Sequence record: PQ850600.1
DNA: 40,352 bases
DNA from: Escherichia phage Dewey
Reading direction: 5' to 3' (one strand)
Of this stretch, positions 21,108 to 22,624 are shown piece after piece (the first letter of the stretch is position 1; every line of letters begins with the position of its first letter). A program made the translations under genes and the position numbers. Under the pieces are notes generated by a model. That model searched no databases and was not told the origin of the DNA. It saw nothing but the letters and a program-made list of their open reading frames with translations.

Positions 21108-21382
21108 GGGCGAATCTCCGTCCTGCCACCAAGTAAGCGGATTGCCACTCGTTCCCGGAAGGTAAGCGGTCGATGGTGTCCGCGGGCATTAACAATTTCA
21201 GGCTTTCCATTAGGCGGATAATTGACCCTGACCGATTGACCATCTAGCGCGTGAGAAGCCTCGAGTAGTGCTGACTTTAAGTGCGCAGGGCACTCTTTCT
21301 GCACCCGCTCGCCGTCTGAAATGACACCTGCAATCCCCTGAAGCATGCTGGCTAAATTGCTGAGATAATTTTTCACATTCAC
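21104..21382 (-). CDS. hypothetical protein
   Basis: 92 aa ORF in the tightly packed early-left operon. Confidence 0.45.
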   Translation of the reverse strand: MNVKNYLSNLASMLQGIAGVISDGERVQKECPAHLKSALLEASHALDGQSVRVNYPPNGKPEIVNARGHHRPLTFRERVAIRLLGGRTEIRP

Positions 21383-21819
21383 TCTCCTTTACCGGTGCCA
21401 TAGGCAGATAAGCACTCTTCAAATCCAGCCTGATTATCCGTTTGACCAAAACTGAAGCCATGCTGAAGACCATGACGAAATGCGCTATCTTGCAATTTAT
21501 CTGCGGTTTCGAGCTTCGCCTCCAGTTCTGCTATGCGCTCTTCATAGCGAGCACCAACCGATACGGCTTTATGGAAGGCTTCGCACCACTTTGACGATTG
21601 CGCCTGCGTCTTCTCCAGCTCATCCAGCAGCGCCAGCACGGTAGTGGGGTTTGCTGCGGAGTTCAGCGCGTTCAAGGCAGTGATATCTGCATCAAGCTGA
21701 GGTCCTTCTGCCAGTGAGATATCGAAAATGTCATCAGGCGGCATAACACTAAGGCGCTCATGTGCGCCAACTGCTGCCGCTGCGATTTCACGCAGCGCCT
21801 GTTTGTCGATGTTGCTCAT
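21379..21819 (-). CDS. early-region protein of an Ead/Ea22-like kind, paralog A
   Basis: 146 aa; begins MSNIDKQALRE and contains ANPTTVLALLDELE, both shared with the adjacent gene. Confidence 0.5.
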   Translation of the reverse strand: MSNIDKQALREIAAAAVGAHERLSVMPPDDIFDISLAEGPQLDADITALNALNSAANPTTVLALLDELEKTQAQSSKWCEAFHKAVSVGARYEERIAELEAKLETADKLQDSAFRHGLQHGFSFGQTDNQAGFEECLSAYGTGKGE

Positions 21820-22355
21820 TGGACTGCCTCCTGGCGGTCTATGCGTTCAATTTCGGCCAGAATAAGTGCGCCAGCTTTCACCAGGTTGCGACGGCGGGCA
21901 TTTGGCTTCCACCATGAAGCATCCCAAGGCCACCCCCACGGCTTGCCACCATTGCGGTTAACAGTTCCTGTTTCGTTTATGTAACAAACCGCCGCCATTG
22001 CCAGTTCCCCGTTGCAGTGTTCGTCATCATGCTCTGGCATCCACCCCTCAACAGCCATCTGCCGCTGGCGCTCTGCTATCACATCCAGAATTGCAGGATT
22101 GAATGCACGCGCTTCAAGTTCTGCAATGCGCTTCTCTGCGGTTTCCAACTCATCCAGCAGCGCCAGCACGGTGGCGGGGTTGGCTGCGGCGATAAATGCA
22201 GCATCACGCGCTTCGTTTTCACTGAATACCATGGCTATTTGCTCATGGTTCACGCCGTCAGTGGAGTAAATCTCATCGTCGAACTCAACAGCCCACCGGC
22301 CTTTCGTCGCCTTCTCCGCCGCTTCACGCAGCGCCTGTTTGTCGATGTTGCTCAT
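21816..22355 (-). CDS. early-region protein of an Ead/Ea22-like kind, paralog B
   Basis: 179 aa; same N-terminus MSNIDKQALRE and ANPATVLALLDELE motif. Confidence 0.5.
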   Translation of the reverse strand: MSNIDKQALREAAEKATKGRWAVEFDDEIYSTDGVNHEQIAMVFSENEARDAAFIAAANPATVLALLDELETAEKRIAELEARAFNPAILDVIAERQRQMAVEGWMPEHDDEHCNGELAMAAVCYINETGTVNRNGGKPWGWPWDASWWKPNARRRNLVKAGALILAEIERIDRQEAVQ

Positions 22356-22624
22356 TGGGCGGCTCCTTCGTAACCGATGGCTTCTGCAATTTCAGCAAGT
22401 GTCTCTGCACTTTCACCCACTGGCTCATTCATCCAGTCGAAGGAAACAAGCCTACCGCCTTCGATAACGCCGATGTTGAAATCATCACTACCTTGTGTTT
22501 TCAGACCATGCTTGATTGCCTTATCGCGCTTATCGAAGTCAACGCCGTCTGTCGTGTATTCAACTCCATGGCCTTTCTCGTTGCACCACCAGTACTGCTG
22601 AATAACGATGTATGATTTTCTCAT
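22352..22624 (-). CDS. hypothetical protein
   Basis: 90 aa ORF, operon packing. Confidence 0.45.
   Translation of the reverse strand: MRKSYIVIQQYWWCNEKGHGVEYTTDGVDFDKRDKAIKHGLKTQGSDDFNIGVIEGGRLVSFDWMNEPVGESAETLAEIAEAIGYEGAAQ

Follow-up and report, generated by a model that had tools for sequence, protein, structure and literature searches.

Two nucleotide islands shared by adjacent Ead/Ea22-like genes of Escherichia phage Dewey are probable joints of homologous exchange

The Ead/Ea22 gene pair and its shared blocks

We present here an analysis of a window of Escherichia phage Dewey, by which we mean the whole stretch of DNA analyzed, 40,352 nt long. The window is that of a P22-like temperate coliphage, and it contains two different members of the Ead/Ea22 family, adjacent and translationally coupled (Table 1). 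The stop codon of gene 2 overlaps the start codon of gene 1 (ATGA). Both genes lie in a pL-type early-left operon, between RecT/Gam and int, with few promoter-like sites from N to the integrase. Both match the Pfam family (gathering score, 27 bits), gene 1 with 71.1 bits (E 1.9e-19) and gene 2 with 82 bits (E 7.8e-23), and the N-domain and hinge alone still match it (E 8.8e-07 for gene 1 and 1e-10 for gene 2). The description of the pair as tandem paralogous early genes in the initial annotation thus holds as far as common family membership and position in the early-left operon are concerned; the origin that it implied is taken up below.

Table 1 Features of the Dewey window (positions in the window)
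Feature	Position	Strand	Assignment or remark
Integrase	17320..18513	-	
Downstream 92-aa gene	21104..21382	-	phrog_14964; ribosome-binding site AAAGGAGAG
Gene 1, Ead/Ea22-like (EaD-like), 146 aa	21379..21819	-	Pfam PF13935
Gene 1 hinge island	21614..21659	-	encodes ...ANPTTVLALLDELE; start of long helix/coiled coil
Gene-start junction cassette, downstream copy	21787..21833	-	CAGGAGGCAGTCCA joined to ATGAGCAACATCGACAAACAGGCGCTGCGTGAA
Gene 2, Ead/Ea22-like, 179 aa	21816..22355	-	Pfam PF13935
Gene 2 C-terminal domain, aa 84-179	21819..22106	-	uncharacterized, all-alpha
Gene 2 hinge island	22144..22189	-	encodes ...ANPATVLALLDELE
Gene-start junction cassette, upstream copy	22323..22369	-	GAAGGAGCCGCCCA joined to ATGAGC...GAA; border of 90-aa gene and gene 2
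Upstream 90-aa gene	22352..22624	-	phrog_26897; last codons ...GAAQ and stop make up the cassette's upstream half
RecT-family single-strand annealing protein	24172..25086	-	Pfam RecT, E 6.2e-32; PHROG 148
Lambda Gam	25089..25514	-	
N	27178..27594	-	

Gene 1 encodes, in order, a leader, an N-domain of type IAAAAVGAHERLSVMPPDD, a hinge, a rare middle segment, the RIAELEA coil, and a C-module (DKLQDSAFRHGLQHGFSFGQ...GKGE) that is also carried by P22 EaD. Gene 2 encodes a leader, an N-domain of type AAEKATKGRWAVEFDDE...AAFIAAANP, a hinge, a short coil, and an all-alpha C-domain. Gene 2 has more than 5,268 relatives (best identity, 96%), of which those named in their sources are all ead/Ea22-like or hypothetical, and it matches 23 PHROG families piecemeal. 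In its AlphaFold model (pLDDT 66.8), residues 6-57 are predicted to form a helix, three strands, and a helix; a long predicted helix (60-84) begins at the hinge and is followed by a separate all-alpha domain. The model thus appears to match the build described for Ea22 proteins, in which a coiled coil links a short N-terminal part to a C-terminal domain, both of them variable (PMC7093339, PMC10834534).

The C-domain of gene 2 carries the invariant motifs E..RQ, EGW.PEHDD, WPW..WWKP, and RR.LVKAGALILAEIER, and it is found in other phages either standing alone or fused to other leaders. Its assignment as a DUF550/MazG-type dNTP pyrophosphohydrolase was not supported: Pfam gave no match at E values up to 10, and there are only weak hints of the all-alpha NTP pyrophosphohydrolase (MazG/dUTPase-like) fold. 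Neither the two protein sequences nor a C-domain profile had a significant match among PDB sequences, Foldseek found no match in the PDB for the full-length gene 2 model at its pLDDT of 66.8, and NCBIfam gave 0 matches among the 7 proteins searched.

The two proteins end differently, in GKGE (gene 1) and QEAVQ (gene 2). The ribosome-binding site of the downstream gene, read in frame, is the KGE C terminus of gene 1. Ends of the [KR]GE type occur in 42 of 97 unique family gene ends, and because the motif coincides with the ribosome-binding site of the next gene, it does not appear to be a defining feature of the protein.

Both open reading frames begin with MSNIDKQALRE, as first noted. A sequence search of the window confirmed that the 36-nt block TTCACGCAGCGCCTGTTTGTCGATGTTGCTCATTGG occurs there exactly twice, at 21787-21822 and 22323-22358, in identical form; 100 shuffles gave 0 chance matches with up to 3 mismatches allowed. 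The block can be extended to 41 nt at 95% identity. It belongs to a start cassette consisting of a Shine-Dalgarno site, a spacer of 7 to 8 nt, the ATGA stop/start overlap, and the 11 leader codons, which follow one another in this order on the minus strand in the downstream copy. Both Dewey junctions and nearly all family copies have the ATGA overlap and an AGGAG site at fixed spacing.

The second block, described at first as near-identical over about 40 nt, proved to be a 46-nt hinge block with 91% identity between the copies, which differ at 4 of the 46 positions. It includes an exact 24-nt core (CTCATCCAGCAGCGCCAGCACGGT; 21619-21642 and 22149-22172), for which the chance expectation is 0. 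Its peptide motif is NPxTVLALLDELE, and the variable N-domain meets the coiled coil there. Between and beyond the two blocks, the genes are essentially unalignable; BLASTP gives 40% identity over 107 aa with 27% gaps, and two motifs carry the similarity.

Islands and modules across the family

Related loci (n = 122) were gathered by means of the leader sequence, so the start-cassette peak described here is partly due to ascertainment, whereas neither the hinge peak nor the 14 nt preceding the start codon is subject to this bias. When window positions 20600-23300 were compared with these loci by blastn, coverage rose to sharp peaks at four places only, the two hinges and the two start cassettes. 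At the hinges it reaches about 60 loci for gene 1 and about 69 for gene 2, compared with 4 to 17 loci in the valleys and 4 to 19 in the flanks of the gene 1 hinge. More than 120 viral contigs contain the islands, and so does P22. The 14 nt that precede the ATG (AGGAGnCnGCCCA) are conserved in 125 copies, whichever of many dissimilar genes lies upstream. The leader core also opens unrelated genes, namely, an EaF-type gene of 119 aa and genes of 76 aa and 79 aa. An identical 33-nt leader occurs in 64 of the 123 leader-encoding copies in the fetched loci, and one copy reads MTNIDKQALRE. The first seven leader codons are almost invariant, and the last four vary in the population.

Codon usage in the islands is narrow. 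The leader codons AGC, AAC, ATC, GAC, and AAA are used at 96 to 99%, compared with 30 to 56% elsewhere in the same genes, and GCG in the hinge is used at 91%, compared with 25% elsewhere. Mean codon diversity is 0.135 in the leader and 0.174 in the hinge, against 0.32 to 0.37 in other shared peptide motifs. Judged by these measures, nucleotide conservation of the islands appears to exceed the amino acid constraint. The contrast is one of degree, as codon sharing in the RIAELEA and AAEKR motifs is nonrandom too. Within the gene 1/gene 2 pair, synonymous differences affect 3 of 25 block codons and 3 of 7 control-motif codons, a difference that is not significant (Fisher P = 0.10). The two blocks are family-wide nucleotide islands, common to almost all members, and not relics of a local duplication.

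The modules around the islands are extensively reassorted. The 74 unique proteins comprise 29 N-domain types and 43 C-end types in 65 combinations, with one N type paired with 12 C types. Eleven segments of the window assort almost independently across loci, and there is a hybrid that joins the N-domain of gene 1 to the C-domain of gene 2. Gene 1 is 97 to 99% identical in mEp213 and contig L057; among the loci compared, the gene 2 N-domain is found in contig L035 only and the gene 2 C-domain in contig L101 only. Tandem pairs with both leader and hinge are present in about 11 of 115 loci, in addition to mEp213 and mEp043.

One viral contig, L111, corresponds to the window without gene 2, and its junction lies within the 36-nt block. 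Window positions 22323-22648 (99.4% identity) and 21614-21822 (99.5%) are contiguous in it and overlap by exactly this block, and the upstream start cassette is fused directly to the gene 1 N-domain. Phage Louie and contigs L055 and L067 repeat this segment pattern, and in these three and L111 the 90-aa phrog_26897 gene directly precedes a gene-1-type ead gene. Comparison with these natural variants supports the earlier suggestion that the direct repeats may drive deletion or duplication.

Proposed mechanism and alternative explanations

We consider it probable that the islands are joints of homologous exchange in a hyper-mosaic Ead/Ea22 family. Exchange between co-infecting phages and prophages would resolve at the islands because these are the sole near-identity between otherwise unrelated modules. 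Exchange at the hinge would reassort N-domains with coil and C-terminal modules, and exchange at the start cassette would insert, delete, or replace whole genes. In tandem members, the islands would act as direct repeats, and a crossover between them would either cause the loss or gain of 536 bp, exactly one gene, or yield an in-frame hybrid (530 bp). L111 shows exactly the predicted 536-bp difference. We infer the enzymes (phage RecT or host RecA), the direction of events, and their rate. RecT, encoded 2 kb upstream within this operon, probably catalyzes such short-homology exchanges on the phage side. Minimal pairing lengths are 31 to 34 bp for RecA and 23 to 27 bp for Red-beta-type proteins (cited in PMC3945230), and the exact runs of 36 and 24 nt reach these published values.

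Recombination could be a by-product of conservation maintained for other reasons, because the start cassette clearly has a translational role too (Shine-Dalgarno site and ATGA coupling) and functional constraint may act on both peptides. Taken further, this becomes the rather unlikely explanation that the blocks are kept for a function of their own, as a translation signal or as leader and hinge peptides serving, for example, oligomerization, with recombination incidental and without a role in shaping the family. The regular AGGAG spacing and ATGA overlap would fit this explanation, as would the near invariance of the first seven codons, the predicted start of the long gene 2 helix at the hinge, and the K/RGE C termini, which are likewise set by the ribosome-binding site of the next gene. 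The hinge is internal to the gene, however, so initiation cannot explain its synonymous-site conservation, and neither RNA structure nor an RNA family was detected. Rfam found no family anywhere in the window, and the RNA folds of the four block regions were no better than those of shuffled sequences (z, -1.6 to +1.1); an RNA-level function of the blocks was rejected on these grounds. An internal promoter as their cause was also rejected, with 5 promoter-like sites found between 19 and 28 kb, compared with 12.2 expected, and none at the blocks. Reassortment and the block-bounded presence or absence of genes, moreover, show that exchanges have shaped real genomes. This explanation overlaps with homologous exchange at the islands, and the dispute is limited to why the islands persist.

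The local tandem duplication implied by the initial annotation did not stand, as the genes share two blocks only and their modules have closer relatives in other phages. Recent duplication followed by fast divergence, with purifying selection on the protein sparing two motifs, would account for two adjacent genes of one family on one strand with a common leader and hinge, but it is very unlikely. Nothing can be aligned outside the blocks, yet inside them the identity includes synonymous sites (0 of the 11 leader codons differ), and divergence by point mutation cannot yield such a contrast. The conserved stretch also extends 14 nt into unrelated upstream genes, and genes 1 and 2 are not mutual closest relatives along most of their length, as recent duplicates would be. 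Ongoing gene conversion within the Dewey genome is improbable, if less so than duplication. It would keep the 36-nt block identical at 36 of 36 positions although leader variants in the last four codons circulate, but the Dewey version is the population consensus (64 of 123 copies), so no special mechanism is required for the identity; with two independent draws, the chance of obtaining the consensus both times is about 27%. The hinge copies, furthermore, differ from each other. Short repeats can mislead assemblers, but a false tandem created by misassembly or chimerism is hardly credible: tandem pairs with the same cassettes occur in the independently sequenced mEp213 and mEp043 and in about 11 viral contigs, Escherichia coli chromosomes are annotated with "ead/Ea22-like family protein (x2)," and both Dewey open reading frames are intact and coupled by ATGA overlaps.

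Comparison with known systems

Lambdoid mosaicism is attributed to relaxed homologous exchange between diverged phages at short identity, with Red-beta, RecT, and other Rad52-like annealing proteins as catalysts (PMC2327257, PMC3945230), and Dewey likewise encodes RecT. Studies of mosaicism have dealt with genome-scale mosaics and experimental substrates, whereas the Dewey joints lie within, or at the edges of, a single small gene family and are drawn from sequence comparison. The case is of a known kind, real but ordinary. The family and its tandem occurrence (RefSeq) and the start repeat (P22 GenBank record) are already known. It nevertheless offers a small, clean illustration of how accessory genes of temperate phages get rebuilt, in which a 36-nt start cassette and a hinge of 24 to 46 nt suffice to move whole or half genes, in frame and coupled. 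Annotation and clustering tools will go on splitting the Ead/Ea22 family, and terminal peptide motifs of its proteins should be read alongside the ribosome-binding site of the neighboring gene. It is possible, but unlikely, that the leader cassette and hinge are kept at the nucleotide level as standard connectors, making the ea region a combinatorial kit with RecT as its engine. If so, N-domains, coils, C-domains, and whole genes (including the non-family eaF) would swap in frame and coupled, K/RGE and ...EAAQ would be connector by-products rather than functional protein motifs, and family diversity would reflect selection for rapid change, e.g., against host defenses.

Lambda and Stx-phage Ea22 resemble the Dewey proteins in Pfam family and in location in the pL operon, which runs from recombination genes to xis/int (PMC7093339, PMC10834534). 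A C-terminal K/RGE motif has been noted for Ea22 proteins (PMC7093339); gene 1 shares it, but gene 2 does not. The Dewey C-terminal domains are unrelated to the solved C-terminal domain of lambda Ea22, which the PDB sequence searches did not match. A pro-lysogenic effect has been shown by deletion in lambda and Stx phages only (PMC7093339). The lambda Ea22 literature suggests that the Dewey proteins may be tetrameric coiled-coil scaffolds with exchangeable end domains that bias the choice between lysis and lysogeny. The epsilon34 genome paper does not discuss these genes, and a literature search on the family name returned passing mentions only.

The same cassette opens eaD of P22, where 45 of its 47 nt align with the Dewey copy at 95.6% identity, and EaD combines the hinge with a gene 1-type C-terminal module (DKLQD.AFR.GL..GFS.GQTD.Q.GF..C.SAY). 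The P22 GenBank record L06296.1 (eaA-eaI) annotates a 26-bp direct repeat, AGCCCAATGAGCAACATCGACAAAC, as "repeat1" and "repeat2" where two consecutive genes, eaF and eaD, begin. The P22 eaF product is a non-Ead/Ea22 protein that shares the first six codons only, so P22 has one repeat and no hinge repeat. In Dewey, unlike P22, both genes are family members and the start and hinge blocks are both repeated.

The arrangement in mEp213 (NC_019720) and mEp043 (NC_019706) is closer to that of Dewey. Each has a gene annotated as ead/Ea22-like or EaD that is 97% identical to gene 1 at the nucleotide level (mEp213 gp34), preceded by a second, translationally coupled Ead/Ea22 gene, so that both genes are annotated family members. 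The upstream partner is 214 aa long as annotated, with the leader VSKIDYQ(A/V)LRE, and resembles gene 2 in the two islands only, at 89% and 96% identity over 46 to 47 nt.

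Identity and setting of the gene pair

Gene 1 and gene 2 are overlapping minus-strand open reading frames (ORFs) whose products score well over the gathering threshold of Pfam family PF13935 (Ead_Ea22). Gene 2 has >5,268 database relatives, the best 96% identical, which carry the source names "ead/Ea22-like family protein" or "hypothetical protein"; alone, it matches 23 PHROG families piecemeal. The window belongs to a P22-like temperate coliphage, with a P22-type portal, a tailspike bearing the P22 head-binding domain, an integrase, a cI-like repressor, N protein, lambda Gam, RecT, and a Mu-Gam-like protein. 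Both genes are on the minus strand, with RecT/Gam on one side and int on the other, in the accessory part of the early-left operon ("ea" in P22, "exo-xis" in lambda), where promoter-like sites are scarce and ATGA stop/start overlaps join consecutive genes. RecT is flanked in this operon by the Mu-Gam-like protein and lambda-type Gam, two different DNA-end-protection or nuclease-inhibitor proteins. Coordinates are collected in the table.

Features of the gene pair and its surroundings (window positions unless another record is named)
Feature	Positions	Strand	Detail
Integrase	17320..18513		
First MSTITRE paralogue	19590-20216	-	DUF551 C-domain
MSTITRE-pair repeat	19788-19827 / 20832-20871		40 nt, 83%
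MSTITRE-pair repeat	19941-19985 / 20943-20987		45 nt, 89%
Second MSTITRE paralogue	20715-21107	-	
K/RGE and next-gene Shine-Dalgarno overlap	21379-21395		Gene 1 end / 92-aa gene start; family-wide in L003-L122
Gene 1	21379..21819	-	146 aa
Second block (hinge)	21614-21659 / 22144-22189		46 nt, 91% identity
Exact core of second block	21619-21642 / 22149-22172		24 nt
First block	21787-21822 / 22323-22358		36 nt, identical
Gene 2	21816..22355	-	179 aa
Gene 2 C-domain (aa 84-179)	21819-22106	-	All-alpha model
193-aa ORF	22621-23202	-	
Mu-Gam-like protein (phrog_253)	23706-24194	-	
Lambda-type Gam (PF06064)	25089-25514	-	
94-aa ORF	26374-26658	-	Begins MDMKEFKGTPGKWKYTVRNVNEMMTTFHG
Leader core outside Ead/Ea22	4170-4195 / 4526-4551 in L123 (P22, L06296.1)		Also in L014, L019, L047, L052

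The Ea22 protein of lambda and Stx phages has a three-part build, is tetrameric, carries differing C-terminal domains, and has a pro-lysogenic effect (PMC7093339, PMC10834534). On the model of lambda Ea22, the gene 1 and gene 2 proteins may be oligomeric scaffolds, built on a coiled coil and bearing exchangeable end domains, that act early in infection. The gene 2 C-domain matches no Pfam family and is a widespread, uncharacterized phage module with 1,164 relatives. It occurs alone, behind an Ead leader and hinge, or behind an MSTITRE...ARIALASLEAEP leader, with invariant motifs EHDD and WPW..WWKP. Its model is confident (pLDDT 89.6), and structural relatives include a 474-aa protein of Pseudomonas phage TH15 and proteins of Klebsiella and Delftia phages. 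Matches to phage NTP pyrophosphohydrolases were not significant; an enzymatic role is a putative lead.

The start cassette and the hinge

Both genes begin MSNIDKQALRE, as the initial annotation recorded, and re-alignment upheld in all details its observation of two shared blocks. The first block occurs exactly twice in the window (0 matches in 100 shuffles with 3 mismatches tolerated) and lengthens to 41 nt at 95% identity; the second is near-identical around an exact core. Outside these two islands, pairwise alignment of the gene 1 and gene 2 DNA fails, and the two motifs carry the BLASTP match between the proteins (40% identity over 107 residues, 27% gaps). In coding-strand orientation, the first block holds the preceding gene's end and the start of gene 1 or gene 2, spanning a gene boundary. 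This start cassette reads (C/A)AGGAGnCnGyCCA followed by ATGAGCAACATCGACAAACAGGCGCTGCGTGAA, comprising a Shine-Dalgarno site, spacer, ATGA overlap, and eleven leader codons. The second block codes for ANP(T/A)TVLALLDELE and is a hinge joining the variable N-domain to a long helix (residues 60-84 in the gene 2 model) that opens the coiled coil. A 47-nt form of the cassette recurs in 39 phage records, among them P22, epsilon34, ES18, ST64B, Tyrion, and mEp213/mEp043.

IMG/VR was scanned with a fully degenerate back-translation of MSNIDKQALRE to catch synonymous variants, yielding at least 120 stretches. Among the matches listed, 64 of 123 copies in the fetched loci have the window's exact 33-nt leader, and hardly any variation occurs in its first 21 nt. 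Leader codons AGC, AAC, ATC, GAC, and AAA are used at 96-99% (30-56% elsewhere in the same genes), and the hinge prefers GCG (91%, versus 25% elsewhere) and CTG (87-100%, versus 47% elsewhere), again among the matches listed. In the same matches, codon diversity is 0.135-0.174 in the islands versus 0.32-0.37 in the shared motifs RIAELEA and AAEKR, a contrast of degree since these motifs are also reduced in diversity; the 14 nt 5′ of the leader ATG are conserved despite very diverse upstream genes. The leader core GCCCAATGAGCAACATCGACAAA also heads genes outside Ead/Ea22, namely an eaF-type gene (119 aa), a 76-aa gene beginning MSNIDKPMTNRELV, and a 79-aa gene beginning MSNIDKQIYGFKNV, which suggests a portable gene-start cassette. 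Codon usage, the conserved upstream 14 nt, and the leader on non-family genes together argue that DNA-level conservation of the islands goes further than the peptides need.

Reassortment and gene presence or absence

Coverage of window positions 20600-23300 by blastn against 122 loci is comb-like. Among the matches listed, 115-127 loci match the two start cassettes, a peak arising partly from the choice of loci; 60-69 match the two hinges, a peak free of ascertainment; and 4-17 match the segments between islands. The 115 complete genes among these matches encode 95 different proteins of 48 to 350 aa. Restricting the listed proteins to the 74 whose hinge motif is strict gives 65 combinations of 29 N-domain types with 43 C-end types, one N type pairing with 12 different C ends. 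Eleven window segments assort almost independently over the listed loci: for gene 1, 17 loci have the N-domain, 15 the C-module, and 4 the rare middle segment; for gene 2, 1 locus has the N-domain, 1 other the C-domain, and 0 have both. A hybrid of the gene 1 N-domain and gene 2 C-domain exists.

A survey of relatives for copy-number variation, as the initial annotation had proposed, yielded locus L111, which has no gene 2 and a junction in the repeat. L111 matches window positions 22323-22648 (90-aa gene and cassette) at 99.4% identity and 21614-21822 (cassette and gene 1 N-domain) at 99.5%. These alignments are contiguous and overlap in exactly the 36-nt block, so L111 equals the window minus 536 bp holding gene 2; three-way alignment places the parentage switch inside the block, and the ORFs agree. 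L111 would be either the expected product of a cassette-cassette crossover or the substrate of the reverse insertion. Phage Louie, L055, and L067 have the L111-like segment pattern with other C-parts from the hinge on. The gene before gene 1 in mEp213 (gene 1 at 97% identity) is a different Ead/Ea22 member, whose similarity to gene 2 is confined to the two islands. L057 has in that place a 251-aa protein combining the N-part of the 193-aa ORF with a gene-2-type C-end, and the homology with the window continues through the cassette as far as 21915. About 11 of 115 loci among the matches listed contain tandem pairs with both leader and hinge, and such pairs are likewise found in the annotations of RefSeq phages and E. 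coli chromosomes.

The repeats had been noted as able to drive duplication or deletion, a reading upheld in part: they do mark sites of deletion/insertion, but a local or recent duplication was rejected as the origin of the pair. The window version is the population consensus, which explains the 36/36 identity without intragenomic gene conversion. For the window pair taken by itself, synonymous differences show no significant contrast (p = 0.10). The start cassette evidently serves translation as well, and two causes are therefore probable for its persistence; the translational one does not extend to the gene-internal hinge. Islands, reassortment, and block-bounded gene presence or absence can be read directly from the alignments, and homologous recombination at the islands would produce the exchange. 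The exact runs of 36 and 24 nt attain the minimal efficient pairing segments of RecA (31-34 bp) and Red-beta-type annealing proteins (23-27 bp) (PMC3945230), and RecT is encoded in the same operon as the pair.

That phage annealing proteins generate mosaicism through relaxed homologous recombination is established (PMC2327257, PMC3945230). GenBank entry L06296.1 for the P22 ea region marks a 26-bp direct repeat ("repeat1/repeat2") where eaF and eaD, two consecutive genes, begin; it also marks in eaD a 111-bp stretch, 98/111 identical to lambda, that starts at hinge codons LLDEL. Against this annotation, the Ea22 literature, and relaxed-recombination mosaicism, the finding adds one more case to a phenomenon and a family already described, and a new kind of element was rejected.

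Neighboring mosaic genes and terminal motifs

A second mosaic paralogue pair of similar design has the leader MSTITRE..., the hinge ARIALASLEAEPVAW, and two common nucleotide islands. MSTITRE-family members come after ead genes in many loci, some bear the gene 2 C-domain, and their hinge island is common to up to about 46 loci among the matches listed.

The C-terminal K/RGE of Ea22 proteins was called unexplained (PMC7093339). Its DNA is AAR GGR GAR stop, with an ATG 1-6 nt further on, and the motif appears to be an in-frame reading of the following gene's Shine-Dalgarno site; it ends 42 of 97 unique family genes among the matches listed. Genes before an ead gene have the C-terminus ...E(A/S)AQ*, a reading of CAGGAGnCnGCCCAATGA.

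Positions 2-198 of phrog_14548 are matched by the upstream 193-aa ORF and 200-371 by gene 1 and gene 2. Fused versions of 251 aa (L057) and 378 aa (L080/L086) occur, and the ...IRKGVQS C-end of the 193-aa ORF also ends a 254-aa Ead protein in L111. The 94-aa ORF has no Pfam match, leader, or hinge; it resembles one Ead N-domain type (…ATPGEWKRMMRNSDELMTTFHG…) and also occurs in L055, L067, L105, and L111.
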